Of a stretch of 54,701 nt of DNA, positions 12,715 to 54,562 are shown piece by piece. The DNA is from a virus. The notes beneath the pieces are model-generated. The model was not told the origin of the DNA and did no database searches. It worked only from the letters and a program-made list of their open reading frames with translations. Numbering within the stretch: the first letter of the stretch is position 1; each line of letters begins with the position of its first letter. The DNA is taken from IMG/VR virus record IMGVR_UViG_3300045988_148989. One strand, 5' to 3'. Both the position numbers and the translations under genes were made by a program.

Positions 12715-12743
12715 ATTATACTATATGTATTACATATAGTCAA
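12715..12743 (-). promoter_or_regulatory. Promoter of the conserved family: TTGACT-N17-TATAAT with the palindrome ATATGTAATACATAT in the spacer.
   Basis: Read on the minus strand, followed by the AAGGAG RBS of 12074..12670. Confidence 0.65.
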
Positions 12744-12761
12744 GCATTTTTAAACTTTTTT

Positions 12762-12793
12762 TAACAAAAATAAAAGGAGTGAATCATCACTCC
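12762..12793 (-). terminator. Intrinsic terminator.
   Basis: GGAGTGA-tgat-TCACTCC plus TTTTATTTTTG on the minus strand. Confidence 0.6.
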
Positions 12794-12797
12794 ATAA

Positions 12798-13106
12798 TTA
12801 GAATACAAAAGTATATCCCTTGTATTCATTATTCACTTTTTCAATCTCAGCGCTCATTTCATTAAGGACTTTTGAAAGTCTTTTCATAGCGCATGTGTCT
12901 AAACCAACTAAATTGGTAAAAGTTAAACAGAACTCCACATTGTAAGTCTGATTAATATTCAATTTTTCACCTTTTAACTGCACACGTGCAATTCTAATGC
13001 CTAGGCTATTTTTGAACAAGCACATTTCTAACTTGTCTCTCAAGTCTTTCTTGATTTCGCTTACTTCTTTAAATGTCATTCTTTTTAATAGTTCTTCGTT
13101 TGTCAT
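12798..13106 (-). CDS. Hypothetical protein (moron-like unit).
   Basis: 102-aa ORF flanked by a promoter and a terminator. Confidence 0.5.
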   Translation of the reverse strand: MTNEELLKRMTFKEVSEIKKDLRDKLEMCLFKNSLGIRIARVQLKGEKLNINQTYNVEFCLTFTNLVGLDTCAMKRLSKVLNEMSAEIEKVNNEYKGYTFVF

Positions 13107-13150
13107 AATTAATCTCCTTTAGGGGGTTGCCCTTTCTTCTTTACAAGTAT

Positions 13151-13179
13151 ATTGTATATGTATTACATATAAATGTCAA
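13151..13179 (-). promoter_or_regulatory. Promoter of the conserved family: TTGACA-N17-TACAAT with the palindrome in the spacer.
   Basis: Minus-strand reading upstream of 12798..13106. Confidence 0.65.
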
Positions 13180-13208
13180 GCGCATATAGCAAATTTTTAT
13201 GATTTTTT

Positions 13209-13235
13209 TCAATAAAAAAAGCACTTGTTAGTGCT
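13209..13235 (-). terminator. Intrinsic terminator.
   Basis: AGCAC-taacaa-GTGCT plus TTTTTTATTG on the minus strand. Confidence 0.55.
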
Positions 13236-13554
13236 TTGCTCTTTCTGCTCTTAATAGCAGTTTTAATTCATTTATTTTCTTTTTTTGATTGATACACATT
13301 TCTCTATACCTTTGTGCATCTGCATCATTTAAAATACCACTTTTCTTATACTCCTTATTTCTTTTTCTTAGGTTCTTATTTTCATATTTGAGCCTTTTGA
13401 TTTCCTTTTCTAAGTCTCCTATTTCATCTAAAAGACCATCATAGTCTTTTTCTAATCGTTCTACATACTCTTTATAATACTTATACTTTTCTGTAGTAAC
13501 GATAGCATTCAATTCTTTATCGTTGTATTCCATATTATAATCCTCCGTATTCAA
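13228..13554 (-). CDS. Hypothetical coiled-coil protein.
   Basis: 108 aa, rich in K/E heptads. Confidence 0.45.
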   Translation of the reverse strand: MNTEDYNMEYNDKELNAIVTTEKYKYYKEYVERLEKDYDGLLDEIGDLEKEIKRLKYENKNLRKRNKEYKKSGILNDADAQRYREMCINQKKKINELKLLLRAERAKH

Positions 13555-13720
13555 TTAAAAGATATGAGTTAATCAAAAAGATTATTGGTAATCCAATCAT
13601 GAATAATAATGATGTAAAACAGATGTCAAAATCTTGAATAGTTAACATCATAATACAAATTATTGAATTGATAATAAGAAGTAGGTTTGTCACCCACTTT
13701 TTGAATCTTAATTTCTTCAT
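13535..13720 (-). CDS. Small membrane protein.
   Basis: 61 aa with two predicted TM helices. Confidence 0.4.
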   Translation of the reverse strand: MKKLRFKKWVTNLLLIINSIICIMMLTIQDFDICFTSLLFMIGLPIIFLINSYLLIEYGGL

Positions 13721-13941
13721 ACTTTATCCCTCTTTTCTTTATAACAACGTTCGCATAAAACGGTTCTTGTAAATGACTTAAAGCCTATAGGCTCTACGAC
13801 ATAGTACATTTTACCATCTCCATAATAATCACAAACAAGATCTACAATCCTTACATCAAAATCACCATCACCAAGTCCATCATCTAATTTTACTTGCTCA
13901 CCAATTTTAAAATACTTCATTTTTTTGCTCTCCTTTTCCAT
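13717..13941 (-). CDS. Hypothetical protein.
   Basis: 74-aa ORF. Confidence 0.4.
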   Translation of the reverse strand: MEKESKKMKYFKIGEQVKLDDGLGDGDFDVRIVDLVCDYYGDGKMYYVVEPIGFKSFTRTVLCERCYKEKRDKV

Positions 13942-13968
13942 TTTTTAAACTAGTTATTCAATATACTT

Positions 13969-14250
13969 TTAGGCTTTATGACCACCTATAAATAAATAAT
14001 CACTATAATCATGATTGCCCGCTAAATAATAGAAATGTATATGGTTTTTTCTATCATAACGATATTTGCAATTAATATCTTGATATACTCCTCTGTATAC
14101 TTCTTCTTGATAAACACTATTTGTATTGGCTTTAACTTTTCCCAAAGGGTAATCTCTAAAGAAAAAGTCTTCACCAAATAACTCCAACAAATCACTACTT
14201 ACATAAACTCTTACTTGTGCTGATTTGTTTGTATTTACTTTTCTTTTCAT
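13969..14250 (-). CDS. Hypothetical protein.
   Basis: 93-aa ORF. Confidence 0.45.
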   Translation of the reverse strand: MKRKVNTNKSAQVRVYVSSDLLELFGEDFFFRDYPLGKVKANTNSVYQEEVYRGVYQDINCKYRYDRKNHIHFYYLAGNHDYSDYLFIGGHKA

Positions 14251-14311
14251 TTTGTGTGTCTCCTTTATTTAAAATTAGTGTTTTTGAGTGTTATCGCTTC
14301 ACTTAATTTAA

Positions 14312-14557
14312 TTATTTGATTTTGATTAATTTACATGACTTCTTTAAACAATCACAACCAATTGGGAATTCATATTCATCTGATAAAGTCCAATATGTTT
14401 CTTTCCCACATATTGCACAAGTATCACTATATTTATTTTTTGAAACTCTTACTGTATTACCTTCTTGAGTATCATTTTCTTCAAACACCTGTCTATTTTT
14501 TAAGATTTTTTCAATCTTGTATAATCCTTCTTTCATTTTACTTACCTCCTTTAGCAC
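14312..14557 (-). CDS. Hypothetical Cys-containing protein (possible zinc ribbon).
   Basis: 81 aa with CAICGKE...CDC. Confidence 0.4.
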   Translation of the reverse strand: MLKEVSKMKEGLYKIEKILKNRQVFEENDTQEGNTVRVSKNKYSDTCAICGKETYWTLSDEYEFPIGCDCLKKSCKLIKIK

Positions 14558-14733
14558 TCAACCATGAATTCATTATCTAATTCAATCATTGCACTGTTGT
14601 AATCACCACGCTCAATATTAGTTATTGCTTTCATTGGTGTGTGATTGAATTTTAAGAAATCTCTAATTTCATAATACTTGTAATCTTCAAAACTTAATTC
14701 TTTTAAACGCTCTTTGATTTGTTTGATTTTCAT
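14551..14733 (-). CDS. Hypothetical small protein.
   Basis: 60-aa ORF, first gene after the promoter at 14762. Confidence 0.4.
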   Translation of the reverse strand: MKIKQIKERLKELSFEDYKYYEIRDFLKFNHTPMKAITNIERGDYNSAMIELDNEFMVEC

Positions 14734-14761
14734 TTTGATTACCTCTCCTCTTTACAAGTAC

Positions 14762-14790
14762 ATTATACTATATGTATTACATATAATCAA
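14762..14790 (-). promoter_or_regulatory. Promoter of the conserved family: TTGATT-N17-TATAAT with the palindrome.
   Basis: Minus-strand reading, followed by the conserved GTACTTGTAAAG leader. Confidence 0.65.
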
Positions 14791-14815
14791 GCCTTTTTTT
14801 ACATTTTTTGACAAA

Positions 14816-14854
14816 AATAAAAAGAGTGTTTTACCACTCTTTTTTTTATTTAAT
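14816..14854. terminator. Bidirectional intrinsic terminator.
   Basis: AGAGTG-ttttac-CACTCT with an A-run on one side and a T-run on the other. Confidence 0.55.
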
Positions 14855-14960
14855 CACATTCAATTAACAACATTATAGTAATAGTGACAACCTAATAAAT
14901 GCGATTAAAAATGAGCATAATTTCAATCGCAAACATTTTCGTCCACGTTATTTTCAATCA

Positions 14961-14992
14961 CAAATAAAAAAGAGTAGTTTTATAACTACTCT
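14961..14992 (-). terminator. Intrinsic terminator at the end of the lysis cassette.
   Basis: AGAGTAGTT-ttat-AACTACTCT plus TTTTTTAT on the minus strand. It overlaps the stop of 14986..15246. Confidence 0.6.
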
Positions 14993-15246
14993 TCGTTAGT
15001 GATTTCTAACTTTGTTTCAACTTTTCCAACTCGTGATTTTAAATCATCAATCTCTATACCATGCTTTTCTAGTCTTTTGTTCTGTACTGCTTCATCTTCT
15101 TTAATGTGCTCAATGCAACTGTTTAACTTTTCAATGACTATTTTTAATTCATTGATTGGTTGTGTAAACTTATTGATGATTGCAACAAAAGAACCTAATG
15201 TAATCAATGTTAGAACAACATTACCAACAAATTGTGCTTCATTCAT
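14986..15246 (-). CDS. Small membrane-anchored coiled-coil protein of the lysis cassette (XhlA-like?).
   Basis: 86 aa with an N-terminal TM (VVLTLITLGSFVAII) and a C-terminal coiled coil, adjacent to the holin. Confidence 0.4.
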   Translation of the reverse strand: MNEAQFVGNVVLTLITLGSFVAIINKFTQPINELKIVIEKLNSCIEHIKEDEAVQNKRLEKHGIEIDDLKSRVGKVETKLEITNEE

Positions 15247-15256
15247 ATGAACACCT

Positions 15257-15514
15257 CTATTCTTTGTTGATTACTTGTTTAAACGCTTGATGTAATCCTG
15301 TTGATGCTAAGCCACTGAATAAGCCACCTAATAGAATATCGGGTGTGAAACTCATATTGATCCATACATTTAATACAATTCCTAGAATTGCCATAATCAA
15401 CGGAATGTATTTGTTATCAATCTTAGGAATGCTTGTTTTAATGACAAACCCAACACATAAACAAATGCCAACAATCACACATACTAAATAATTAGTTAAA
15501 AAATCTAAACTCAT
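15257..15514 (-). CDS. Holin (TcdE/phage_holin_4-like).
   Basis: 85 aa with three hydrophobic helices and a charged C-terminus. Confidence 0.7.
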   Translation of the reverse strand: MSLDFLTNYLVCVIVGICLCVGFVIKTSIPKIDNKYIPLIMAILGIVLNVWINMSFTPDILLGGLFSGLASTGLHQAFKQVINKE

Positions 15515-15528
15515 GCTTAATACCCCCT

Positions 15529-17139
15529 TTACAATGTGATAGTTCCTATATTTGTAACCGTATTATCTACGTCTACAGGCTGATTTACAAAGTTACCCAT
15601 AAGCAACTGTTTTCCACTTGCTTTAATGCTTGTACCACTATTTATATTAATTTCGTTATATAGTACCTTTTTGCAAGAATAGCAGCCATAACATGTACCT
15701 GTTGCATTCTCGATATTAAATTTACTATTTGAAACACTCTGACAAGCATAAGCACCATATAATGTACCATAAGCACCATTTATATATACATTGATATTTT
15801 CATGGTTGCCACCATATAAACTATATATAGTTTGTGAACTACTTTGTACTGCTTTTATATTAGCGTTCTTGATAGTCACATTATCTGTACAACTCATTAT
15901 TGCTAGTGTTGTATCAGTTAAAGTTATGTTTGGTATAGTCGCTCTTGAAAAGTCAACTATTACTCTTCTTTTTGATGTTGTATCACTATTAAAATCAAAT
16001 ACATGATTGTCAATAGAAGAAGCAATACCTAATGTTCCATTGACTGAAATATACAACTGCGAATTATCTTGAGCACTTGCATAATTTCCAACCCCATTCA
16101 AGAAGTTTTTGACCATTGTTGATAATGTTTTATTGTCATTATCTCCCGTTGCTTCATATACATATTCACCAATAGCATTTACTTCTTCTTCTAACTTATC
16201 AACTCTTGTAACAGTGCTTTCTGCAATTGTTCCCTCAACACATTTTTTGTTTACAAACTCTATTCTTGTACCGATTCTATCCAATTCATTTGTAAATATA
16301 ACTTGTGTTCCTTGAGCGTTTATACTAAATTCATCTTTTGCTAGTACAAAGCCATTTACACGAATTTCTAATACATCAAGAGAATTGTTTACAAAGTTGA
16401 TTGTGCTAGGTATCGTGAAAGTCTTTTCACCTTGTGCAACTGTTGCGTATATTGCTTTATATTCTCTATAAAGGTTTGCTGATTTAACAGTATCCTTGAT
16501 AGTATCGAACCATATATCAAAGTCACTTTTCTGTGTTGTCTCCCAATTTGTGAAACTCTTGCTTGTCTCATTGATAAATGTATCTTGAGCATCTTTATAT
16601 TGATTGAATAATGTTGTTGTATCAAACTGCTCAATTAGTCCGACAATCCAACCACAAACATCATTATTTGATCGTGTATCTTCAATCATTGAATTTGTGA
16701 TTGATGTTGTATTCTTGTTCACAATGATATTTGCTAAACATATCTCGTATGTTGTTTCATCTCTTGTTAATGATGGTGGTGTAGGTGTTGAGGATAACTC
16801 ACCTTCCAACAATTTAACGTGTGTTAAACGTGTGCTATTGTCTCTTGAGATTACAATTCTATCAATCCTATTCAAGATTACATCACTTGAAGGAATATCA
16901 ATTGTATAATCCTTATCAATCTCAAACCAATTATTTCCTACCTTGCCTCTACCCGATTTAACAATAACCTTCATTCCTGTACTTTCAACAATCTGACAGG
17001 CATCTGAAACCGTTGCAAATATTCCATTATCGGAAATCAAGCCTTTGAAATAGTCATTAACCTGTTCTGCCGTATATGTTCTATCAGGTTCATTATCAAC
17101 CATAATTGCATTGAAAAATCCACTATTTAATTCAATCAT
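15529..17139 (-). CDS. Receptor-binding / tail fibre protein with a pectate-lyase-like beta-helix.
   Basis: 536 aa. The C-terminal portion shows beta-helix repeats (NIKAVQSS...NINVYINGAYGT...CYGCYSC). Confidence 0.55.
   Translation of the reverse strand: MIELNSGFFNAIMVDNEPDRTYTAEQVNDYFKGLISDNGIFATVSDACQIVESTGMKVIVKSGRGKVGNNWFEIDKDYTIDIPSSDVILNRIDRIVISRDNSTRLTHVKLLEGELSSTPTPPSLTRDETTYEICLANIIVNKNTTSITNSMIEDTRSNNDVCGWIVGLIEQFDTTTLFNQYKDAQDTFINETSKSFTNWETTQKSDFDIWFDTIKDTVKSANLYREYKAIYATVAQGEKTFTIPSTINFVNNSLDVLEIRVNGFVLAKDEFSINAQGTQVIFTNELDRIGTRIEFVNKKCVEGTIAESTVTRVDKLEEEVNAIGEYVYEATGDNDNKTLSTMVKNFLNGVGNYASAQDNSQLYISVNGTLGIASSIDNHVFDFNSDTTSKRRVIVDFSRATIPNITLTDTTLAIMSCTDNVTIKNANIKAVQSSSQTIYSLYGGNHENINVYINGAYGTLYGAYACQSVSNSKFNIENATGTCYGCYSCKKVLYNEININSGTSIKASGKQLLMGNFVNQPVDVDNTVTNIGTITL
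15721..15734 (+). promoter_or_regulatory. Dispersed motif copy 7 (tttactatttgaaa) inside the RBP gene 3' region, about 200 bp upstream of the holin.
   Basis: Core ACTATTTGAA. Confidence 0.45.
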
Positions 17140-17154
17140 CTATTGCACCCCCTT

Positions 17155-18207
17155 CTATAATCCAAAAGTTAAAACTGTCTGTTTTCTGTTCTTGTCATAA
17201 CTCTCTATCACTTCTATAATTCTAGCATTTATATACATATTATTCCATTTAGTTTTCATAATACTCACAATATCACCAATGTATATATCGCCATTTTTTC
17301 CATATGTATATCCACTCAATGAAACACTGCCATCAAAAGCCGTTGTTATTGTTGTAAGGTTTTCTAATCCTTCCTCTAACATCTGTTCTTTTATTTCTGC
17401 TTCTGATATTTCACCGTTGTTTGTAGACATGTTTCTTTGGTCAACCCATAACTCAAAGCGTTTCAATCCTTTAGGCTCAATACCATTATAGGCTTTCACT
17501 ATTCTTCTATCAATTCCTTCTCCTTCACCTGCTACATAAGCAATGTTTTTTAATGTTGAAGTCTGATATACATAAGTTACTTCTTTTAAATTGTCATATT
17601 CATCACTGAATATAACCCATGGATTCTCATTCTGTGCATATGACCTATCAATACCTTTATACATTTCATAGTATAATTTATCATCTCTTAAAGGCATTCT
17701 AAAGCCTATTCCTTTAGATTCACATATTTCTTCTATCTTATCTAAAAGGTTTGCTCCTGTTATTTGTATTTCTATCTTTTCATCTATCGAATTATCAATA
17801 GCACCTAATTTTACAAAACTGATATTTCTATTGGTATCTGTTGCATTGATCATATTCATTTCAATTAGATTTCTGCATTGATATTGAGCGTTACCACTCA
17901 AGATAGTTTGTTGAGATACAACCCTACTATTCAACACATAACCCTCTGCAAATTTTCCTGTTACTTTTATCTTGTCTCCATCTTCTGTATTGCTTACTAT
18001 CTCATAATCCTCAATGATTCCAACATTGTCTTCATCATCATCTCTTACAACATATAAGCCACTCTTGATTAATGATAGATAATAATCTGTAACTGTTGTA
18101 TGTAGTTCAAAATCACCACTCTTATAATATCTAGTAGCCCATATCAATTCAGCGTTTTCAATCAATCCTAATCTTTCAAAATTCTCATTCTCTATGATTA
18201 CATCCAT
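17155..18207 (-). CDS. Tal-like tail tip/baseplate protein.
   Basis: 350 aa, placed between Dit and the RBP. Confidence 0.45.
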   Translation of the reverse strand: MDVIIENENFERLGLIENAELIWATRYYKSGDFELHTTVTDYYLSLIKSGLYVVRDDDEDNVGIIEDYEIVSNTEDGDKIKVTGKFAEGYVLNSRVVSQQTILSGNAQYQCRNLIEMNMINATDTNRNISFVKLGAIDNSIDEKIEIQITGANLLDKIEEICESKGIGFRMPLRDDKLYYEMYKGIDRSYAQNENPWVIFSDEYDNLKEVTYVYQTSTLKNIAYVAGEGEGIDRRIVKAYNGIEPKGLKRFELWVDQRNMSTNNGEISEAEIKEQMLEEGLENLTTITTAFDGSVSLSGYTYGKNGDIYIGDIVSIMKTKWNNMYINARIIEVIESYDKNRKQTVLTFGL

Positions 18208-18209
18208 AA

Positions 18210-39410: not shown

Positions 39411-39878
39411 TTAAATATTCCAATCTTTATCATCTGCAAGTTTCTTCTTTAACTCTAATTCTGCTTGCTTTAGTTCATAACTATCCCAATCATTTTTCCA
39501 ATTATCCTTATCATAGTTCTTGAGTAATAAATGTAATGCTCCTGTATCTCCGTCAACTTCTTTTGTTGTTATTTCAGTATGCTTTCTAGTAGAACCATTT
39601 TCATCTTGAGTAACATATGTTTTCTTGGTTTCTAGAGTATGTTTAAATGCTTTCTTTATCATTTCACTTCTTAAATCTAAAACTAAACTTGATCGCCCTT
39701 TTTTTAAGGCTTCTTTTAATTCCATTTTTTCCTTATGAACATTGAAAGCACTAACTGAAATTCCTAACGCTTCACATATCTGTTTTTCAGTAGCACCACT
39801 TTTAACCCATTCTTCTATTTTATTTATATTTGGAAATATGACAGTGTCATAAACGCTTTTTCTTCCTCTTTTAGACAT
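39411..39878 (-). CDS. HTH DNA-binding protein, small-terminase-subunit-like (or a late regulator).
   Basis: 155 aa. The N-terminal HTH TEKQICEALGISVSAFNVHKEK and its architecture resemble Terminase_2-type TerS. It is separated from terL by about 9 kb. Confidence 0.4.
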   Translation of the reverse strand: MSKRGRKSVYDTVIFPNINKIEEWVKSGATEKQICEALGISVSAFNVHKEKMELKEALKKGRSSLVLDLRSEMIKKAFKHTLETKKTYVTQDENGSTRKHTEITTKEVDGDTGALHLLLKNYDKDNWKNDWDSYELKQAELELKKKLADDKDWNI

Positions 39879-39962: not shown

Positions 39963-40175
39963 TTCAATTTTTTAACAATTAAAAAAGACAGTGAATATTT
40001 CACTGCCCTTTTTAGGAAAAACGTTTATACGCTTCTCAATTTGGGAAAAAAGTGTTTTGTTTGTCTCGTACCAAATCTAAGAACACTAATAACGATGGTA
40101 CACCTAGAAGGTTCTGCCCCTCCGTTTATCCCTTATAAGGAGACCACTCTACTATTGAGTTATAGGTGTATACGG

Positions 40176-40249
40176 TGTTGAATTGAGGATTCGAACCCCT
40201 GTCCTCTAGTCTCCACGACTAGATATTCTACCTTTGAACCATATCCAAC
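40176..40249 (-). tRNA. tRNA-like gene with a non-canonical anticodon arm (anticodon possibly UGG/Pro if the loop is 7 nt).
   Basis: The reverse complement reads GTTGGAT...GGGGTTCGAATCCTC AATTCAAC A. It has a 7-bp acceptor stem, a perfect GTTCGAATC T-loop and GG in the D-loop. The anticodon hairpin TCTAGTC-GTGGA-GACTAGA has a 7-bp stem and a 5-nt loop. Confidence 0.5.
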
Positions 40250-40377
40250 AGTTATAAGCACTATTTTCAAGTGCTTATATAAAAATGATTTAAGAAATTG
40301 AGTTAAAGAACATGCATATTTGCAACTCTTAGTTGCAAGTATTATTATACTCATTTTCATAATATTTTCAATATTTT

Positions 40378-40405
40378 TTAAATAAAAAAAGGTGATTTCT
40401 CACCT
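40378..40405 (-). terminator. Intrinsic terminator (bidirectional-looking) between the small ORF and the tRNA-like gene.
   Basis: AGGTGA-tttc-TCACCT flanked by A-runs and T-runs. Confidence 0.5.
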
Positions 40406-40407
40406 TA

Positions 40408-40578
40408 TACAAATCTTATTTCCATTCCGTCCATCCATGAATTTATTTCGTATGGGTCATTCATGAAACTTTCTTTTGCTTCTTCAATTCTTCTTTCTAC
40501 TTTTTCATTTCCAAATAATTCTCTTGCTTTCTTTTTTGAAATTCTCTTTCCATTTAAATAAATTCTTGTTCTCATTTT
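40408..40578 (-). CDS. Small hypothetical protein (57 aa) driven by the conserved promoter at 40609.
   Basis: Manual translation MRTRIYLNGKRISKKKARELFGNEK..., preceded by GAGAGAGG. Confidence 0.3.
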
Positions 40579-40608: not shown

Positions 40609-40637
40609 ATTATACTATATGTATTACATACATTCAA
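40609..40637 (-). promoter_or_regulatory. Promoter of the conserved family: TTGAAT-N17-TATAAT with the palindrome in the spacer.
   Basis: Minus-strand reading. Confidence 0.6.
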
Positions 40638-40892
40638 GCGATTTTACTTATTTTTTGCAACAAAAAAAGGAACTATATTATATATAGCCCCTTTAAAAGG
40701 AATAACCCTTTTTTATGTGTTTTGGAGGACACACAACCAAAATGAAAACAAGTAAACCAAAACGACAAACTAATGACAACCAAAGTGAGGTGTCCTATTC
40801 ACCTCAAATAACATTATACATGTTTTTACATTTTTTACAACGAATATTATACATATTTTTACATTTTTTACAACATAAAAAAAGAACGCTTT

Positions 40893-41084
40893 TTAGCGTT
40901 CAATATCTGCTTTTATTAAAGCCTTAATGTATCCATTCACATTCGCACATTTTTCTAAATGATCGTAAATATCTTTTTCTGTCTTCTTATTTACTTTAAT
41001 AGGAAAGTTCTTTGTGTTCGATTTATTGTACTTAGCACTCGCTTTAAGTTGTGCCTTGCTTGTTTTTTCATTCAATGCTATCAC
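40893..41084 (-). CDS. Ribbon-helix-helix (Arc/MetJ-like) DNA-binding protein.
   Basis: 63 aa. The beta strand FPIKV is followed by two helices (EKDIYDHLEK, NVNGYIKALIKADIE). Confidence 0.4.
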   Translation of the reverse strand: MIALNEKTSKAQLKASAKYNKSNTKNFPIKVNKKTEKDIYDHLEKCANVNGYIKALIKADIER

Positions 41085-41518
41085 CTCTATTTCATTATAT
41101 CATAAATAAGTAATATGTGATACTTATAATTTTAAAATTTAAGAAGGTTGATTTTTGAAGAGTGTTTTTATCAACCTTCTATATAGCGATTACTAACATA
41201 GGAAATCTTGTTTTGTGAGGTGATTTCCTTCTTTCTTCTTCTTTATTTATGCTTTCATCACTGTTTAACGCATTGAAAATGAGATTTTAAAGGTAAAATG
41301 CATAAAAGTCTTGTTTTGATTAGTACAAGTAACTAATAATATTAAAAATTAAATATCAATGCGTTGTTGAATCCCTATACTGACAATGAGATTAAATGAA
41401 AAAAATCTAAATAGGTATTTGTATATAATTTAATTTTCTTATGAGTCTTGTTTTGATTAGACCAAGTAACTAATGTTTAAAAAATATATTACATCAATAT
41501 AGGGATATACTATATATT

Positions 41519-41719
41519 CTATAGATATTTTTCTATTTCTTCAAGACCTTCAATCTCCTCTAGTTCATCTTTTGAATTTTCTAATAGATATTTTAGATAA
41601 TTTATTCTTTTTTTTAATGCTTCTTTTTTGTTTGGATTTGGTTCATTTCCATCAAGCATTAATCTATTATCCATTGCCATATCAATAACGTTGCATACAA
41701 TAGTATCAATTTTCGTCAT
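41519..41719 (-). CDS. Hypothetical small protein.
   Basis: 66-aa ORF. Confidence 0.4.
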   Translation of the reverse strand: MTKIDTIVCNVIDMAMDNRLMLDGNEPNPNKKEALKKRINYLKYLLENSKDELEEIEGLEEIEKYL

Positions 41720-46194: not shown

Positions 46195-46199
46195 AAATA

Positions 46200-46742: not shown

Positions 46743-46756
46743 TTTACTATTTGAAG
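46743..46756 (+). promoter_or_regulatory. Dispersed motif copy 13 (tttactatttgaag) abutting the RBS of a 56-aa ORF (about 46563..46730).
   Basis: Core ACTATTTGAA. Confidence 0.5.
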
Positions 46757-46764
46757 CGTTATGT

Positions 46765-47973
46765 TTAAAACAACTTCATTCTAGGATCGCTCCCATTCGT
46801 TTCTCTTTTATATTGCATATACGCTTCTGAACTTTTAGGAGAAAAACCCAATCCTCTTAGCCAATAATCATTTCTTAATATTGATTTGCATATCTTGCGA
46901 TAACTTGGAATATCTTTTTTCTTTTCTATGTAATAATCTGCTTCATCGGGTATACCATCATGGTAACAATTATCTTCCCAATATTTTATGTATTTATCTA
47001 TTTGATATTGATAGTGCTTTTTTGTTTTTGGTGGCATTGAATTTATTAATAATTCATAATAACTTTTCCATGTATGCCCTTTGGGTTTTGAAATTTTGTT
47101 ATATCCATTTATGTTTCCTGTCTCATTAATATACAACGCTCCACTATTTGCACCATTAACACGTTTTACAACCTTGCCCCATGTATTAGGTTCAATCAAA
47201 TGGAATAACCATAACCCTCTTCTTTGGTCATCTCCGTATGGTTGGCATATTCTCATTTGGCTTAATTTTAATCCTGCTTCATGCATATAATCATATAATT
47301 TATTGTATGGTTTATCTTTGTTCTTACCTTGATATGTCCATATATCGCTTACTTTCCAATCATAAATAGGATATACATTATAAACATGTTCACTTGCTCT
47401 TGTTGTATACATCTTACTATCTTTAGTTTCTTTTCTTGAATTTGCAATGGTTCTATATCTATTTAAACTTTCATCACTTCTTATACCAACAAAGTTTGCC
47501 GTTGTCTTTCCTTGTGAATACCATTCACCAAACAAAGGAACGAACTCCTCAAATTCCATACCATCTCTAAAGAACGGAAAATAGTTTATATCATTTATAC
47601 AATCTTTTGGCATTTGTCTAATCCATATATCTTTTTGATCACTGTCCCAACATTTCCAAAATGGTTCATATACACTTACTGCATTTCTTAAATGTATCGG
47701 TAAACATATCCAAAACCATTTTGAATTTTCTTTATACATTTCTTTCATTGTTAAAGCGTGATTTATAGTTATATCATATTGACCTTCTAAATCTATCAAA
47801 ATAACACCTACAACCTTATTTCTTTTAATTGCTTCTTGCATAACCATGTGCAACATTACAGTGCTATCTTTTCCACCGCTAAAACTAACATATATTCTTT
47901 CAAAGTTATCAAATGTCCATGATATTCTTTGTTTAGTTGCTTCATAAACATTTATTCCTATTCCTTTTTTCAT
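46765..47973 (-). CDS. IbrA-like PAPS-reductase-family (PP-loop, DUF3440-like) protein, copy 2.
   Basis: 402 aa with the PP-loop SFSGGKDS near the N-terminus. Paralogous to 50062..51333. Confidence 0.7.
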   Translation of the reverse strand: MKKGIGINVYEATKQRISWTFDNFERIYVSFSGGKDSTVMLHMVMQEAIKRNKVVGVILIDLEGQYDITINHALTMKEMYKENSKWFWICLPIHLRNAVSVYEPFWKCWDSDQKDIWIRQMPKDCINDINYFPFFRDGMEFEEFVPLFGEWYSQGKTTANFVGIRSDESLNRYRTIANSRKETKDSKMYTTRASEHVYNVYPIYDWKVSDIWTYQGKNKDKPYNKLYDYMHEAGLKLSQMRICQPYGDDQRRGLWLFHLIEPNTWGKVVKRVNGANSGALYINETGNINGYNKISKPKGHTWKSYYELLINSMPPKTKKHYQYQIDKYIKYWEDNCYHDGIPDEADYYIEKKKDIPSYRKICKSILRNDYWLRGLGFSPKSSEAYMQYKRETNGSDPRMKLF

Positions 47974-48368
47974 ACCATTTCACCTAAATCAAATAAAGAT
48001 ATTTGCCCTTGGTGTCTCCTTACCCAATTTGTAATAATTTCATTTGCTATCTTGTTTGCTTGTTCTCTTTGATTGTCTGTAAGCAATCCCCACCCTTCTC
48101 TTGTTTCGTCTTCATGAACGTTTGCGTATATACTACAACATGCTTGACCTAACCACGCTTTTTTATTTATTTTATCATTTGATAAATTATACTCTGTCGC
48201 ATTTTTCCATTTGCTTACTACTGTTTCCATTGCTTTACGGCACGTTTCTTTATCTCCTAATATTTCACACGCTCTCTTTACTCTCTCATTTCTATCATTT
48301 TTGTTTTCTCTATACATGCCATTTTGAAAATCTTCCATTTCTTGATATTGATGAAATATCCTTTTCAT
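47970..48368 (-). CDS. Hypothetical protein between IbrB-like copy 2 and IbrA-like copy 2.
   Basis: 132 aa with no recognisable motif. Confidence 0.45.
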   Translation of the reverse strand: MKRIFHQYQEMEDFQNGMYRENKNDRNERVKRACEILGDKETCRKAMETVVSKWKNATEYNLSNDKINKKAWLGQACCSIYANVHEDETREGWGLLTDNQREQANKIANEIITNWVRRHQGQISLFDLGEMV

Positions 48369-49006
48369 TATTCAATCACATCACTTTCATTAACTTCCCA
48401 TGCTTCACTAAATTCTTCATCTTGAAACATTTCTGCCAATCCATACACTTGAGATAATCTTAATATTTCATCTTGATCTAATCCCAATTCTTTAGAAATC
48501 CTTTTATCTGTCCAATTTCTTCTTTTCAAATCAACTACTATTTGGCTCATTCCATCTATTGTATGTTTTCCCCTTGCTCTATTGTGCCTAATGGTTGAAG
48601 CAATTCTATCACCTTTATCTTTTCTATTTTCGTTTATAACAACTACAGGCAAATATCCTTTTACTCTCTTTTTAATATCTTCATATTCTTTCCCAACTCT
48701 GTTTCTATGAAATCCATCAACAACTTCATAAATACCATTATTCTCCCATACAACTATTGGTTGTGTATATCCATCTTCTTTAATTGATGTATGTAATAGT
48801 TCCATTTCGGGTGGAGCAACAACATTTGGATTGTAATCATTTTGCTTAACTAAATCTTGTTTTACCCATTTGATACATTCAACGGGTTCATAATTAAAAG
48901 GACTAACTTCTTTCAATCTTTCTTTTATGTAATTTATTGATTCTATTCTTTTATCAATATCCATTGATTTTAAAGAATCAATTATTTCATCTATCTTTCC
49001 TTTCAT
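48368..49006 (-). CDS. IbrB-like ParB/Srx-domain protein, copy 2.
   Basis: 212 aa. VDGFHR (the ParB-N DGxHR motif) and ASTIRHNRARG are shared with copy 1. Confidence 0.65.
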   Translation of the reverse strand: MKGKIDEIIDSLKSMDIDKRIESINYIKERLKEVSPFNYEPVECIKWVKQDLVKQNDYNPNVVAPPEMELLHTSIKEDGYTQPIVVWENNGIYEVVDGFHRNRVGKEYEDIKKRVKGYLPVVVINENRKDKGDRIASTIRHNRARGKHTIDGMSQIVVDLKRRNWTDKRISKELGLDQDEILRLSQVYGLAEMFQDEEFSEAWEVNESDVIE

Positions 49007-49015
49007 TATTTTTTA

Positions 49016-49525
49016 TCACTCCCAACTTTTAGAAAATTCCTTATCTTTGAATAAACTTGCTAACCCACTAATCTGTTTCAATCTTAATAACTCTTCTGCA
49101 TCCATACCAATGTTTTTCATAATCCAAGCATCACTCATACCACTACTAACTAAATCTGCAACAATGTTTGTCATTAATTCAATATCATGGCTTCCTCTTG
49201 CTCTATTATGTCTAATTGTTGAAGCCATTCTATTAGATATATCTTTATCAATCGTTACAACAGGTAAACAACCACCTTCACGTTCATATATATCTTTATG
49301 ATTTAACATAGTTGTATATCTATGAAATCCATCAACAATTTCATATTTATCTTCATCTTTCAAGTAATAGCATACAATAGGCATTGTATAACCATCTTCT
49401 AAAATAGACTTATATAATAAATCCATTTCGGGTTTTGCAACATGATTTGGGTTATATGAATTTGCTTGTATTTTATCAATTGGTACTCTTTTAACGTTAT
49501 AAACAGGGCTTACGAATCCTTCCAT
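49016..49525 (-). CDS. IbrB-like ParB/Srx-domain protein, copy 1 (start trimmed to MEGFVSP after AAGGAAGG).
   Basis: IVDGFHRY and ASTIRHNRARG. Confidence 0.65.
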   Translation of the reverse strand: MEGFVSPVYNVKRVPIDKIQANSYNPNHVAKPEMDLLYKSILEDGYTMPIVCYYLKDEDKYEIVDGFHRYTTMLNHKDIYEREGGCLPVVTIDKDISNRMASTIRHNRARGSHDIELMTNIVADLVSSGMSDAWIMKNIGMDAEELLRLKQISGLASLFKDKEFSKSWE

Positions 49526-49527
49526 TT

Positions 49528-50061
49528 TTATTTTTCCTTCCTTTTTAACCTTGCACATCTCTTGTATCTCTTATCCAAAAAATAATAATTATTCAAAATC
49601 TCTATTTCATCATTTATAGATTTTAATTTATGGACAGACCTTTTACTTTCTATCCTTCCTTCTAATATGATGTATTCTACATCACATTCATATAATGCTT
49701 TTTCTATATCATGTATTAAACTATCTCCACCACAATCATATATTTCGGGTATTACTCTTCTGAAAACAACAATATCAATTTTATTCTTAATTAATATATC
49801 TCTAAATTGAGATAATGTATTTTCATTGATTTTCATATTTACTATATTTTGATATATAGACCTATCACAATAATATTTGCTTGATTCAATACCTATAACA
49901 TTGAATTGCTTTGATAGCCTATGTGATAGTAATCCATAGCAACAACAAATATCTAAAATGTTTGATCCTATTGTGTTGCTAGTCAAATAGAATATATCAT
50001 TATGTATTTTTGGATATATCCCATATTTGAATTGTTTTAAATATTTATCATCATCAAACAT
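49528..50061 (-). CDS. Hypothetical protein with a degenerate class-I SAM-methyltransferase-like Rossmann motif.
   Basis: 177 aa. ILDICCCYGLL resembles motif I (hhDhGxGxG with G to C changes). VIGIESS resembles post-I and IDIVVF resembles motif II. Confidence 0.3.
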   Translation of the reverse strand: MFDDDKYLKQFKYGIYPKIHNDIFYLTSNTIGSNILDICCCYGLLSHRLSKQFNVIGIESSKYYCDRSIYQNIVNMKINENTLSQFRDILIKNKIDIVVFRRVIPEIYDCGGDSLIHDIEKALYECDVEYIILEGRIESKRSVHKLKSINDEIEILNNYYFLDKRYKRCARLKRKEK

Positions 50062-51333
50062 TTATAAAATTTTGCTATACCTTTCTACTGCTCTTTTTCT
50101 CTTTGTCAATTCGCTCTTCGTTTGAGCAAATCCCATATATTTACAATAATAATCATTTTTAATAATACAAATACACATTCTTTTATATGTAGGTAACTCT
50201 TTGAAATTCTTGCAATCTGTATCATCTAAATATTCATCAAATGCAACAACTTCTTTTGTTGTATGTGGTTTTATTCTTCCTTTTCTTTCACAAGGAATAT
50301 TATTGTTTTCCAAATACTCTAATGTATCATCACTAACAACACATCCTTTTTCTCTCCATACCTTAATTGAAGTATTTAACTTATCTAAATAATGTTGTCT
50401 TGTGTTTTCATCAAGGGTATCAAGCAAGAAATAACAATACTCTTTCCAAGTGAAATGTTTTGGCTTGGTAATTGATTTCCACCCCATTGCAGTAGTTCCA
50501 CCATACAATCCTGCAAAGTTTACACCATTAACTCTACCTATCATTTTCCCCCAATTGTTAGGATCAATAACTTTGTATAGTTTTAATGAATGTATCCCAC
50601 AATCATTAAAAGGACTTGCAACTCTCATTTGGTCAACGTTTAATCCTGCATTATAGAATAAGTCATACAATTTGTTATATGGCTTCTCAAATTTACAGTT
50701 ATAAATCCAAACATCATCTACATTCCAATCATAAATAATGTATGCTTTATCCTCGTTTATCCATTTGAGACTTTTGTATTTTCTTACTTTATCACTTGCG
50801 ATTGCTCTAAAACGGTTTAAACTTTCATCCGTTCTTATCCCAACCACATTTACAGTGTTTGGATGCTTCTTTTTAAACCATTCAAAGAAGCCTTTAGGAA
50901 TTTCAAAATCATCTTTTTTTATTTCGAATTCACAATTGTCTTCATTGATTACATAATCATATGTAGGCATTTCACGAACCCAAATATCTTTTTTTGATTT
51001 TTCCCAAGGAATCCAATACCCCTTATCCATTCTACATGCACATTGTGCGTATATTGGTAAACACAACCAATATCTTTCAATGTCATTGAAACGCTTAAAC
51101 GTTTCATCAACATAATCCGTTGTCATTTGGTATTGTGCTTCATAGTCCATATGAACCATTGCTAATTTATGAAGCATGTTATGCTTCTTTGCATAGTCAT
51201 AGCACATTTCCAAGCACACACCACTGTCCTTACCACCACTAAACGAAACAAGAACAGTGTCAAATTCATTAAATATGTACTCAATACGCTCTTGCGTTGC
51301 TTCGTACACATTTTTATCTATGTACTTTTTCAT
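50062..51333 (-). CDS. IbrA-like PAPS-reductase-family (PP-loop, DUF3440-like) protein, copy 1 (start trimmed to MKKYIDKNVY after AAAGGAG).
   Basis: VLVSFSGGKDSGV PP-loop. Paralogous to 46765..47973 over the full length. Confidence 0.7.
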   Translation of the reverse strand: MKKYIDKNVYEATQERIEYIFNEFDTVLVSFSGGKDSGVCLEMCYDYAKKHNMLHKLAMVHMDYEAQYQMTTDYVDETFKRFNDIERYWLCLPIYAQCACRMDKGYWIPWEKSKKDIWVREMPTYDYVINEDNCEFEIKKDDFEIPKGFFEWFKKKHPNTVNVVGIRTDESLNRFRAIASDKVRKYKSLKWINEDKAYIIYDWNVDDVWIYNCKFEKPYNKLYDLFYNAGLNVDQMRVASPFNDCGIHSLKLYKVIDPNNWGKMIGRVNGVNFAGLYGGTTAMGWKSITKPKHFTWKEYCYFLLDTLDENTRQHYLDKLNTSIKVWREKGCVVSDDTLEYLENNNIPCERKGRIKPHTTKEVVAFDEYLDDTDCKNFKELPTYKRMCICIIKNDYYCKYMGFAQTKSELTKRKRAVERYSKIL

Positions 51334-51520
51334 ATATTCTCCTTTCAATACAAATAAGAAACGGACTAAATAAGCCCATTTCTTATTTTTTAGTAGATTA
51401 CTTAAATAATCTACTATAAGCATAGCGATAACTACGCTTTTGAAGTGGATGCTTCACAATGAAGTACCACCAACCAATTCTCTTTTTTCTTTTCATTTGT
51501 GTATCCTCCTTACAACCACT

Positions 51521-51549
51521 ATTATATATGTATTACTTATAAATGTCAA
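51521..51549 (-). promoter_or_regulatory. Promoter of the conserved family: TTGACA-N17-TATAAT with an imperfect palindrome in the spacer.
   Basis: Minus-strand reading, upstream of a 33-aa basic leader peptide ORF and IbrA-like copy 1. Confidence 0.6.
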
Positions 51550-51553
51550 TATT

Positions 51554-51877
51554 TTACATTACCTTTTTTACATCTTTCCACAATGGGTTTAATGTCCCTT
51601 TGTAGTTTAGATACATGTTTTCTTGAAAAGCGCTATATCCTGTTAATACATGAATTTGTTCATTACCTAAGAATTCACCGTCTTGGCTATAATACTCGCC
51701 ATATTTGGTTTTTCCTTCTTCATAATGGCAACATTCAAACTCACCACGATCAAGCGCTTCTAACGCTTGATTTTTTAATTCTTCAATTTCTTTTTGGGTT
51801 GCTTCTCTATAATCAACCTCTCTTTCTAAAAATATATCTCCATTATCAGCAATCCAAACTTTCTTTAATTTCAACAT
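51554..51877 (-). CDS. Hypothetical protein.
   Basis: 107 aa. Confidence 0.45.
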   Translation of the reverse strand: MLKLKKVWIADNGDIFLEREVDYREATQKEIEELKNQALEALDRGEFECCHYEEGKTKYGEYYSQDGEFLGNEQIHVLTGYSAFQENMYLNYKGTLNPLWKDVKKVM

Positions 51878-51901
51878 CTTCTTTTCTCCTTTTCCTTTAT
51901 G

Positions 51902-51915
51902 TTTACTATTTGAAG
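51902..51915 (+). promoter_or_regulatory. Dispersed motif copy 14 (tttactatttgaag), about 28 bp upstream of gene 51554..51877.
   Basis: Core ACTATTTGAA. Confidence 0.5.
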
Positions 51916-51943
51916 CACAAGCGCTATGCTTGTGCTATTTTTT
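51914..51943 (+). terminator. Plus-strand-oriented intrinsic terminator-like hairpin amid minus-strand genes.
   Basis: AGCACAAGC-gctat-GCTTGTGCT followed by ATTTTTT on the plus strand, with no U-run on the minus strand. Confidence 0.45.
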
Positions 51944-52217
51944 CAACTTGTGATGAATCAAATAATGAAGCGCTAACCATAATGAACTTGCTTTCTTCCT
52001 TATTATCTTCATCTTTCTTTCTATTTCTAACCTTTTTCCAAAGTTTAGTTTTAATAACTGCCTTTGACCCTTTTTTGACTTGGTAGCCACTATATTTCCA
52101 TTCTTGATATGTTTTGTATGGTAATGCTCCAAACTTTCCAATTATTTCTTCAACTTGTTGTTCTGTTAATAATTCTCTTGTAATTACTTCGTTTGCTACG
52201 ATTTCTAGATTTGTCAT
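51924..52217 (-). CDS. Hypothetical protein, possibly an ArdC-N-like ssDNA-binding domain.
   Basis: 97 aa. YKTYQEWKYSGYQVKKGSKAV resembles the ArdC N-terminal signature. Confidence 0.35.
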   Translation of the reverse strand: MTNLEIVANEVITRELLTEQQVEEIIGKFGALPYKTYQEWKYSGYQVKKGSKAVIKTKLWKKVRNRKKDEDNKEESKFIMVSASLFDSSQVEKIAQA

Positions 52218-52245
52218 ATTCTTTTTCCTCTCTTTCTATATATCC

Positions 52246-52274
52246 ATTATAGCATATGTGATACATATATACAA
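52246..52274 (-). promoter_or_regulatory. Promoter of the conserved family: TTGTAT-N17-TATAAT with the palindrome ATATGTATCACATAT in the spacer.
   Basis: Minus-strand reading. Confidence 0.55.
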
Positions 52275-52303
52275 GAGAAAATAGAATTTTTGCTATTATT
52301 TGT

Positions 52304-53545
52304 CTAAATGTCTTTTATCCATTTAGTTCCTTCTTTCTGCAACTTCTGTTTAATCAAATTATCAAGCGTGCTTTTCTTTCTTATGTTTTCTAGTACTAAA
52401 TCTGTAATACCTAAATCAGTGAGAATATATGTATATTTGATGTCTCTTTCTTGTCCTAGTCTCTTGATTCTATATTTTGATTGTTCTAGTTTTGAATACT
52501 CAAAATTGATACTTGAATATACTATTTCATTGCAAAATTGAAGATTTAAAGAGAAAGCACCACAACCATATGTCATTAATAAAGGCTTTTGATCGTTCTT
52601 GAATACTTCTATAACTTTATTACGATTATTCGTATTTCCTGTTATCACATAACAATCTATCTTGCTTTGATAGTATTCAATCTCTTTTAAATAATTACAG
52701 AATACAATCACTTGTTTATTTTCTATGTACTTTATAACTTCATCATTCTTTCTTTCGTATGTTGATGCTATAACGTTCAATGATTGCAACATATTTATAA
52801 TTGCTTCACTTGAGCCATATTCAAGAACCTTGTCTAGACTTTCTTCTTTGATTCTGTAATATTCATCATCATCAATATAAGAAACCCATTTATAAGATTC
52901 ATCTTCATTCTTGCTAAATTCCAAATCACATTGATAGATATAAGGACTAACCATCTTGTTTAGCACATCAGCGTTTACTTCGCTGAATTTATAAAAGGTG
53001 TGTTCTCTACTTTCGTATTTCTTCTTATATCTTATTTTGTTAAAGAATTTGTATCTAAACTCATTCTCATTCATTCCGATAATTTTATGACTTAAAAATT
53101 CCATCTGATTGTATAGATCAAATTCATCTTTTACTATTGGTGTACCATTCAACACTAAAGCATAAGAACAAAGGTTTCTTAATTCCATTGTTCTCTTTGT
53201 TCTTTTTGTGTTTCCGTTCTTAATAAAAATGCTTTCATCTGCAATAATGAAAGCGTTCTTTTTTGTTTTCATATTTTTCAATAATTCTAAGTATTTAACA
53301 TCACTACTTGAAATAGTCTCATATCCTACTATTTCATAATCGCAACGAATACCCCATTTTTTTATTTCCTTCTCTATGTTCCCTTTTGTTGAAAATGGGC
53401 AAAGATAAAGCATAAAGTCAGTATCTGTATTATTCACTAGTTCTAAAGCGACTCTTGTTTTACCACTTCCCATTTTCATAAACAAAGCACCAACACGCAT
53501 TTTAGAAAACTTATCAAATGCTAGTTTTTGATTTACTGTAATCAT
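52304..53545 (-). CDS. SF2 helicase, SNF2-like.
   Basis: 413 aa with motif I GSGKT, motif II DESIF and motif VI QSKYRIKRLGQ. Confidence 0.7.
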   Translation of the reverse strand: MITVNQKLAFDKFSKMRVGALFMKMGSGKTRVALELVNNTDTDFMLYLCPFSTKGNIEKEIKKWGIRCDYEIVGYETISSSDVKYLELLKNMKTKKNAFIIADESIFIKNGNTKRTKRTMELRNLCSYALVLNGTPIVKDEFDLYNQMEFLSHKIIGMNENEFRYKFFNKIRYKKKYESREHTFYKFSEVNADVLNKMVSPYIYQCDLEFSKNEDESYKWVSYIDDDEYYRIKEESLDKVLEYGSSEAIINMLQSLNVIASTYERKNDEVIKYIENKQVIVFCNYLKEIEYYQSKIDCYVITGNTNNRNKVIEVFKNDQKPLLMTYGCGAFSLNLQFCNEIVYSSINFEYSKLEQSKYRIKRLGQERDIKYTYILTDLGITDLVLENIRKKSTLDNLIKQKLQKEGTKWIKDI

Positions 53546-53958
53546 TTCATTAACTCCTTTGGTATTTCAATATCTTCTATTTCTATTCTCTTTGGTTCTT
53601 CAACCTCATAATAAGAAGATTTTATAAAATTTGTATAGTCGTCAAAATCATCTTCAACAACTTTAAACGCTTCTTCAAAGTCCTCAACGCTTATACTTTT
53701 CTCAGCAATCTTTTCATATTTGTTTGTCTTTCCACTTCCATTCTTGAAGATGTTGAAAGTGAAATCATCTGTATATAATAGTTCATAACTACTACCTCTA
53801 TAGTATGATTCTTTGACTAACTTCTTTGGATGCCAAAAAAGAAATCCTTTATACTTTGAACTCAAAGGCATTTTAACAAGGACTGATTTAACAGTCCTTG
53901 CTTTTATTTGGTTTTCACATAGGTTTACGCTTTTCCATTTCATTTTCGATAACCTCAA
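53542..53958 (-). CDS. Hypothetical protein upstream of the helicase.
   Basis: 138 aa. Confidence 0.45.
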   Translation of the reverse strand: MRLSKMKWKSVNLCENQIKARTVKSVLVKMPLSSKYKGFLFWHPKKLVKESYYRGSSYELLYTDDFTFNIFKNGSGKTNKYEKIAEKSISVEDFEEAFKVVEDDFDDYTNFIKSSYYEVEEPKRIEIEDIEIPKELMK

Positions 53959-54148
53959 CTAACATATTTCTAAAATCTGAAAGGATATCATTGTATCTTT
54001 TCAACGTTTTGGCATCTTCTAAATTTCTTTTGTATGCTTGTACCGTTTCTAGCACAAGCATTTTTCTAACCTCAACATCATATAAGATATTTAGATCGTC
54101 CATAATATCAATCATATCTTTAGCGACCTTATCATTAATTATTTTCAT
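53915..54148 (-). CDS. Hypothetical protein.
   Basis: 77 aa. Confidence 0.4.
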   Translation of the reverse strand: MKIINDKVAKDMIDIMDDLNILYDVEVRKMLVLETVQAYKRNLEDAKTLKRYNDILSDFRNMLVEVIENEMEKRKPM

Positions 54149-54162
54149 TTTTATTTTCCTCC

Positions 54163-54483
54163 TTATACTTCTTCAAAATATTCTCCGTCTCTTGTCATAG
54201 TACGGACGAATTTTTTAATTATTTTTAATAATTGTTTTCCTTCATCATTCTCTCTATAGATTGATAGATTAACTTTGCCTTCTCCCCATGAACCCTCATA
54301 TTCTAAAACAATATATATTGTTTTAGTTTTTCTATAGGAACTATCGTCTACCAATCCAATTAAACATTCCCCAAAGCTCCATCCGTATGATGTATCATTT
54401 AACATCATATCTTTATCAGCCATTAAAATTTTAATGGCTTCTTCTGTTGCCATTCTTTGGACTTCATTTCTTGAATATTTCAT
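54163..54483 (-). CDS. Hypothetical protein, first gene of the early operon driven by the promoter at 54534.
   Basis: 106 aa. Confidence 0.45.
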   Translation of the reverse strand: MKYSRNEVQRMATEEAIKILMADKDMMLNDTSYGWSFGECLIGLVDDSSYRKTKTIYIVLEYEGSWGEGKVNLSIYRENDEGKQLLKIIKKFVRTMTRDGEYFEEV

Positions 54484-54533
54484 TTTTCTTTTCCTTATGA
54501 GTTCCTTTGAACTCCCTTTCTTAATACAAGTAC

Positions 54534-54562
54534 ATTATAATATATGTATCACTTATATTCAA
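54534..54562 (-). promoter_or_regulatory. Promoter of the conserved family: TTGAAT-N17-TATAAT with an imperfect palindrome.
   Basis: Minus-strand reading. It is preceded on the minus strand by the terminator in the terminal repeat. Confidence 0.6.

Follow-up and report, generated by a model that had tools for sequence, protein, structure and literature searches.

The sequence examined here, which we refer to as the window, is the whole of the 54,701-nucleotide (nt) viral record IMGVR_UViG_3300045988_148989, and the element in question is a short palindrome that lies in the spacers of seven predicted promoters (P1 to P7) on its minus strand. The two ends of the window share 119 nt (1-119 = 54583-54701), indicating a circular or terminally redundant contig with 54,582 unique bases, the guanine-cytosine (GC) content is ~30%, and almost all genes in the window are on the minus strand. 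The genome is that of a temperate, siphovirus-like phage of 54.6 kb, derived from a metagenome; its recognisable genes, including those encoding XRE-type helix-turn-helix (HTH) proteins and a small ribbon-helix-helix (RHH)-like protein, are listed together with the promoters, terminators and repeated motifs in Table 1.

All seven sites lie on the minus strand exactly where the initial annotation had placed them, each with the palindrome inside a 17-nt spacer, and all seven are intergenic. They share a TTG -35 element, a TAnAAT -10 element, 10-12 of 12 consensus matches and upstream A-tracts, and each is followed, as had been claimed, by a ribosome-binding site (RBS) and an ATG, the start codon lying 20-45 nt downstream. 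From their anatomy they are predicted to be sigma-70/sigmaA-type promoters of separate transcription units; the label 'early', which the initial annotation gave them, is an assumption. The position of the palindrome relative to the hexamers (its register) varies, and in P2 the final T of the palindrome is the first base of the -10. The common leader reported downstream of several copies is also present, as (G/A/T)TACTTGTA after P1, P2, P3 and P7; its spacing is constant to the -10 and not to the palindrome, so the leader is best regarded as part of the promoter or of the 5' untranslated region. The units themselves were correctly assigned: P7 heads the SNF2 helicase operon, P5 heads the IbrA/IbrB-like genes (PAPS_reduct+DUF3440 and ParB_N domains), and P1-P3 adjoin the serine recombinase. 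The only open reading frame (ORF) under P4, encoding 56 amino acids (aa), finishes at a terminator at 40406-40389. The 5' leaders of P1 and P2 have in common a small hairpin, GGG(T/C)AACCCCC, before the RBS (12686-12696 and 13122-13132, minus strand), the P7 leader has GAGTTC-AAAG-GAACTC in the same place (54499-54514), and these hairpins are kept in relatives.

Table 1 Predicted features of the window (positions in nt of the 54,701-nt record; register, position of the palindrome relative to the hexamers).
Feature	Position	Strand	Details
Promoter P1	12715..12743	-	TTGACT-17-TATAAT; exact ATATGTAATACATAT (12723-12737), register 0; 198-aa ORF 12074-12670
Promoter P2	13151..13179	-	TTGACA-17-TACAAT; exact ATATGTAATACATAT (13156-13170), register +3; 102-aa ORF 12798-13106
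Promoter P3	14762..14790	-	TTGATT-17-TATAAT; exact ATATGTAATACATAT (14770-14784), register 0; six small ORFs, 14733 to 13228
Promoter P4	40609..40637	-	TTGAAT-17-TATAAT; GTATGTAATACATAT (40617-40631); 56-aa ORF 40405-40575 only
Promoter P5	51521..51549	-	TTGACA-17-TATAAT, 12/12 consensus; ATAAGTAATACATAT (51526-51540), register +3; IbrA/IbrB-like cluster from 51423
Promoter P6	52246..52274	-	TTGTAT-17-TATAAT; ATATGTATCACATAT (52254-52268); ArdC-N-like 97-aa and 107-aa ORFs
Promoter P7	54534..54562	-	TTGAAT-17-TATAAT; ATAAGTGATACATAT (54542-54556); ORFs of 106, 77 and 138 aa and SNF2 helicase
Eighth palindrome	41113-41127	-	ATAAGTATCACATAT; overlaps the -35 element upstream of the RHH-like gene
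60-aa RHH-like protein	40893..41075	-	candidate regulator; TTG start at 41075
Intrinsic terminator upstream of P1	12766..12793	-	7-bp GC-rich stem and U-run, -11.3 kcal/mol
Intrinsic terminator upstream of P2	13208..13237	-	
Intrinsic terminator upstream of P3	14809..14844	-	bidirectional-looking hairpin
Intrinsic terminator upstream of P4	40659..40694	-	13-bp stem and U7, -12.7 kcal/mol
Intrinsic terminator upstream of P7	54592..54621	-	ends ParB/methylase gene 27-1322
cI	9386-9793	+	XRE-type; divergent from cro
cro	8759-8986		XRE-type HTH
Large serine recombinase	10084-11949		
ERF, SSB, RusA, NinB, replisome organiser			downstream of cro
ParB/methylase gene	27-1322		
SNF2 helicase	52304-53545		
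Two IbrA-like PAPS-reductase/DUF3440 proteins	46765-51423		with ParB_N partners
IbrA-like ORF	50062-51423		PAPS_reduct and DUF3440 domains
TerL, portal and capsid genes			present
Holin			
Endolysin			Amidase_3/SH3
13-mer TACTATTTGAAKM, starts	1541, 3764, 9010, 9271, 9369, 10054, 15723, 19177, 23027, 31887, 39941, 46745, 51904	+	13 nt each

The palindrome had been described as exact in four copies and as carrying one mismatch in two; two copies do carry one mismatch (40617 and 51526), whilst only three are exact (12723, 13156 and 14770) and the remaining two read ATATGTATCACATAT at 52254 and ATAAGTGATACATAT at 54542. Because the variants differ in the 3-nt centre, we treat this as free and give the consensus as ATATGT-N3-ACATAT, a palindrome of 15 bp which the usual flanks, T and A, extend to 17 bp. 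Allowing at most one mismatch, nine sites occur in the genome, compared with a mean of 0.76 expected and a maximum of 4 in 300 first-order Markov simulations. A motif search had been expected to return seven copies and no others, which is not the case, as eight of the nine are promoter-associated. The eighth overlaps the -35 element of the promoter which serves the RHH-like gene (41094..41127, minus strand), an extended -10 promoter of the form ATCACA-16-TATAAT with TG (TGnTATAAT). Eight of the nine palindromes are intergenic, every one on the strand of its gene. The ninth (12213-12227) we attribute to chance because it is within ORF 12074-12670, has no hexamers and has a broken AC in the otherwise invariant core. 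Other intergenic promoters are without the palindrome, namely Pcro, that at 3754-3727, the tRNA promoter at 40371-40344 and the tandem promoters at 40873 and 40840. The element thus recurs far above chance in the promoters of several units, as scattered operators do. A role as an RNA hairpin was considered and rejected: symmetric double variants (ATGTGT..ACACAT, ATAGGT..ACCTAT) are outnumbered by asymmetric ones, and a 7-bp A/U stem would be weak.

To place the palindrome in a wider context we collected ~20 related contigs, all of them metagenomic, 26-55 kb in length and mostly from one IMG sample, through searches with the exact promoter pattern, the IbrA-like protein, the small RHH-like protein and a second promoter pattern (type B, below). 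These provided 52 distinct promoter contexts, all with 17-nt spacers, in which the palindrome occupies four registers (0, n = 32; +2, n = 3; +3, n = 16; +5, n = 1) and two backbones. Type A has the form GCTTGAWT-palindrome-AG-TATAAT (GCTTGAWT...AGTATAAT), and in type B AAATATTGACATTT precedes the palindrome, which overlaps the -10, (T)ATAAT. An alignment of the contexts on the palindrome has its highest information content within these 15 nt, and its flanks are blurred. Of the two halves, the right one (ACATAT) is almost invariant, the left one is also found in relatives as ATAAGT, ATGTGT or ATAGGT, and the centre as AAT, ATC, GAT, AAC or ATT, leaving GT-N3-AC as the invariant core of the motif. 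Since the palindrome keeps its own sequence in four registers and two backbones, a separately selected module, i.e. an operator, is favoured; with one further copy over a -35, the palindrome appears separable from the elements read by RNA polymerase. More distant relatives which also possess SNF2 and IbrA genes (loci L133-L155) contain zero copies. No blastn match for two regions of the window was found in cultured-phage records (n = 50,697), a 126-nt promoter query gave insignificant Staphylococcus matches only, and searches for homologues of the recombinase and endolysin, aimed at the host, returned metagenomic records only.

The arrangement of terminators bears on how far these units are insulated from one another. 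Hairpin plus U-run terminators of -9 to -14 kcal/mol are adjacent to P1, P2, P3, P4 and P7; owing to the circularity of the contig, the one at 54592-54621 is identical to 10-39. Five of the seven promoters had been credited with such a terminator and the number is right, as are P1, P2, P3 and P7, but the fifth place belongs to P4 and not to P5. The hairpin which had been assigned to P5 (51914-51936) runs into UCAAAUAG on the minus strand, which is no U-run, and its T-run is on the plus strand. A distance of ~370 nt also separates it from P5, which is downstream, and this interval holds ORF 51554-51877, whose stop codon abuts the P5 -35. Similarly, of the two promoters said to be without an upstream hairpin, P6 (52246) is indeed so, whereas P4 (40609) has the terminator at 40694-40666. 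As the 51914 hairpin is neither adjacent nor followed by a sense U-run, P5 and P6 are not insulated. In distant relatives (L133-L149) nothing separates the SNF2 helicase gene from the IbrA-like gene, whereas in this clade the two are parted by P6 with its ArdC-N-like and 107-aa genes and by P5 (51554-52274); P1 and P2 are single-gene units between terminators. The P6/P5 insertion and the P1 and P2 units would therefore both qualify as morons, in the sense of inserted units with a promoter and terminator of their own.

We lean towards reading the palindrome as a shared operator in the promoters of separate units, and hold this to be probable, if only just. The best-surviving competitor is a portable, constitutive promoter cassette, in which the sites would descend from one or two strong modules (terminator, A-tract, -35, spacer, -10 and leader) copied together with morons, the palindrome being an inherited AT-rich spacer and perhaps a structurally favourable one. 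Similarity among the sites does extend to upstream AAAAATGTAAAAA tracts, to GCTTGA and to the (G/A)TACTTGTAAAG leader, the flanks of type-B promoters are conserved as much as the palindrome, P1-P3 occupy the classic moron position beside the recombinase, and the insertion of the P6 unit and P5 between genes which abut in distant relatives is itself moron-like. Yet the sequence and symmetry of the palindrome are kept across the four registers and the two backbones, which are unrelated to each other, whereas a neutral spacer would lose its palindromy as the hexamers shift; moreover, the copy at the RHH-like gene is outside a spacer, and the other promoters of the genome manage without the palindrome. 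We consider the cassette unlikely.

As a shared operator, the palindrome would be bound by a symmetric dimer, or a dimer of dimers, which, seated in the spacer, would reach into both hexamers and deny RNA polymerase access to the promoter; the bound form could be two RHH dimers on the 15-17-bp palindrome within the 17-nt spacer. A single protein would in this way switch all the units together, those of P7, P6, P5 and P4 along with P1-P3. The hexamers are near consensus and are preceded by A-tracts; such promoters should need no activator to be strong, which makes repression more likely than activation. The set may be kept silent in the lysogen, or it may be switched off once an early burst is over; transcription as soon as the phage enters would suit the ArdC-N-like gene under P6. 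This model rests directly on the anatomy of the promoters, the excess of palindromes over chance, their location between genes, their retention in relatives and the shifts in register, and from these we infer protein binding, repression over activation, the identity of the regulator and the timing.

The regulator would most likely be phage-encoded. Pfam scans of ~80 ORFs recovered HTH domains in cI and cro only, and a 155-aa HTH-like protein (39411-39878), which was tried as a regulator, is the small terminase subunit. Among the candidates the 60-aa RHH-like protein ranks best, and we tentatively propose it as the palindrome binder, an assignment that we rate as less likely than not. By binding the copy over the -35 of its own gene, this protein would be subject to negative autoregulation. 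The eighth palindrome is identical, flanks included, at the promoter of this gene in close relatives, and the gene adjoins a palindromic promoter in two diverged clades. Where homologues share at least 67% identity, palindromic promoters are present in 12 of 12 low-GC contigs, and a homologue of 44% identity with a different predicted beta-strand is from a contig without them. Conversely, the protein is encoded in all nine palindrome-positive contigs for which the relevant region is available. Contig 146506, in which palindromic promoters but no RHH-like gene were detected, was examined as a counter-example and set aside: its stored sequence stops ~250 nt before the syntenic RHH position. An AlphaFold2 model of the protein places an N-terminal helix, an extended segment (24-32) and helices 33-42 and 48-59 in the order of an RHH fold. 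The 60-aa protein belongs to a family of widespread small phage proteins without a Pfam model, found in phages of 33-55% GC, which follow the pattern AQxKASAKYDKxNTK-x4-KLN-x2-TDxDIxxxLE-x3-NxQGYIKxLIR (in short, KYDKxNTK...KLN...GYIKxLIR) and some of which have fused C-terminal domains (loci L209-L230).

Several observations weigh against a shared operator under this protein. The structural model is mediocre (predicted local distance difference test 70, predicted template modelling score 0.35). In one clade (L164-L167) the RHH-like gene has no palindrome upstream, and the loci of 22 distant homologues (41-61% identity) are without repeated palindromes, such that no support from covariation was obtained. 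The relatives which do carry the palindrome form one narrow clade, whose conservation and co-occurrence add little independent weight, and type-B promoters conserve nonessential flanks too. Finally, morons are usually expressed from the prophage, and the moron look of P1-P3 sits awkwardly with their co-repression alongside DNA-metabolism genes.

The palindrome could instead be an operator for a host transcription factor, for example a winged-helix dimer of the GntR/FadR type, through which the units would respond to host physiology. GntR/FadR-type sites typically have a GT-N3-AC core, and this is the invariant core of the motif in our alignment; in addition, no HTH regulator besides cI and cro was recognised in the genome, and the RHH fold of the phage candidate is predicted only. 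Against this, a scan of 185,579 genomes with the exact 15-mer returned, among the matches listed, scattered singles in unrelated taxa, none with promoter context, and the motif is confined to a narrow phage clade and absent even from relatives of similar GC (L133-L136). A host factor is in our view quite improbable. More improbable by far is that the palindrome is bound by the phage CI or Cro and that the seven promoters are extra immunity operators: these are the sole recognisable HTH proteins and scattered sites for immunity repressors occur in other phages (PMC10516654, PMC9283540), but no palindrome is found between cro and cI even at 3 mismatches, that region instead has three copies of an asymmetric 13-mer, TACTATTTGAAKM, as well as AGCATGA-N5-TCATGCT within the spacer of Pcro, and locus L136, with a CI of 69% identity and the 13-mer, has no palindrome in 21 kb.

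The initial annotation had already distinguished the spacer palindrome from the site between cI and cro, and this distinction stands; the other motifs present there, together with the missing palindrome, make a regulator other than CI or Cro plausible. Pcro shares the palindrome-in-spacer design with a different site, the perfect palindrome AGCATGA-N5-TCATGCT (9034-9052) having a single copy in the genome (at up to 3 mismatches, 4 matches against 3.5 expected). By comparison, the 13-mer has 13 copies at up to one mismatch against 1.24 expected, all on the plus strand. Eleven of the 13 are intergenic, often directly behind a stop codon, and copies stand just downstream of the -10 of Pcro (9010), PcI (9369) and the recombinase promoter (10054). 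The bias to the plus strand is seen in relatives too, L136 included. The 13-mer is asymmetric, and its absolute orientation does not change even where genes are on the plus strand, which favours a signal at the level of DNA over one in RNA. Asymmetric, ~13 bp long, dispersed, locked in orientation and placed at promoters and in intergenic gaps, the set looks like stoperator-type repressor sites, which in the literature compared are described only for mycobacteriophages, and the 13-mer is probably a more unusual feature of this genome than the palindrome. That this low-GC phage clade has two independent genome-wide motif circuits, the spacer palindrome under the RHH-like orphan family and a stoperator-type 13-mer tied to the XRE-type CI, is, taken as a whole, unlikely.

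The neighbourhood of the RHH-like gene has further features outside protein-coding genes. Two tRNA genes (40099-40169 and 40174-40249, minus strand), one of them tRNA-Pro(TGG), are located between the 56-aa gene of P4 and the small terminase gene and have their own promoter (40371-40344); ORF 40160-40360 is spurious, because the tRNA genes occupy this region. Tandem promoters of the form TTGTAAAAAATGTAAAAA-N-TATAAT at 40873-40846 and 40840-40813 (minus strand) are followed by ~130 nt free of ORFs, with a hairpin inside and the terminator 40694-40666 at the end. Rfam gave no match for this stretch (40660-40873), which is located between the RHH-like gene and P4 and may encode a small RNA. A further ~400 nt (41130-41520, minus strand), ahead of the RHH-like gene, are non-coding. 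They contain a long-loop hairpin (41145-41180) and two 30-nt direct repeats, TTAGTTACTTG(GT/TA)CTAATCAAAACAAGACT (41444-41473 and 41307-41336), and their candidate roles are those of an origin, a packaging site or an RNA.

Regulons built on scattered operators are documented in several phages and plasmids. The closest documented case is the Bacillus subtilis prophage SPbeta, in which a 15-bp element (SPBRE) occurs in ~ten promoter regions and is bound by MrpR/YopR, silencing the units in the lysogen, the element having been predicted in silico 24 years before MrpR binding was shown (PMC10516654). The likeness lies in a 15-bp element recurring at the promoters of separate units in a temperate phage of a low-GC host; the difference is that MrpR is a large protein of recombinase fold, of which none was seen here, whereas our candidate is a 60-aa RHH-like protein, and that SPBRE binding has been shown whereas binding is here predicted. 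In cluster A mycobacteriophages (L5, Bxb1), copies of the repressor site are dispersed at promoters and in short intergenic gaps (PMC9283540). The L5 sites are asymmetric, bound by a monomer, dependent on orientation and block elongation, whereas the palindrome is symmetric and confined to promoter spacers or a -35, such that the cluster A stoperators are a better match to TACTATTTGAAKM than to the palindrome.

Plasmids and other phages offer further parallels. KorA of RK2/IncP-1 has palindromic OA operators in ~seven promoters, and omega of the inc18 plasmids is an autoregulated RHH repressor, with a disordered N-terminal extension, that acts at Pcop, Pdelta and Pomega. Both resemble the arrangement proposed here, in which a small, autoregulated, dimeric repressor would act through one short repeat present in a number of strong sigma-70 promoters, and the disordered N-terminal extension of omega has its counterpart in the 60-aa candidate. 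However, these are plasmid systems, omega reads arrays of 7-bp heptads (WATCACW) and not a single palindrome, and no likeness in sequence or fold to the 60-aa candidate could be shown. The C1 operators of P1 and the conserved inverted repeats of phiC31 are cases in which one phage repressor serves many operons through scattered operators, and P22 immI (Mnt/Arc) is a second, RHH-type repressor system apart from the main immunity region. These differ in turn: P1 has an asymmetric operator, phiC31 has a large repressor, and Mnt/Arc control one promoter pair in P22, compared with seven or eight promoters here. Judged by these precedents, the scattered-operator regulon is already known in both phages and plasmids and the present case appears to be a further instance of it, possibly with a regulator from an orphan family.

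As one repressor with many operators is textbook knowledge from SPbeta, P1, L5 and RK2, the value of the finding is in annotation and as an experimental entry point and not in a new concept. In practical terms, the seven sites would make a compact set of strong promoters, switchable through a single operator, for low-GC hosts. If the operator reading is true, the palindrome would give a short DNA target by which an orphan family of small proteins could be assigned a function. It would also define a set of co-regulated accessory and DNA-metabolism modules, spanning an ArdC-like anti-restriction gene, IbrA/IbrB-like genes, an SNF2 helicase and several orphan genes, in an abundant, uncultivated group of phages.

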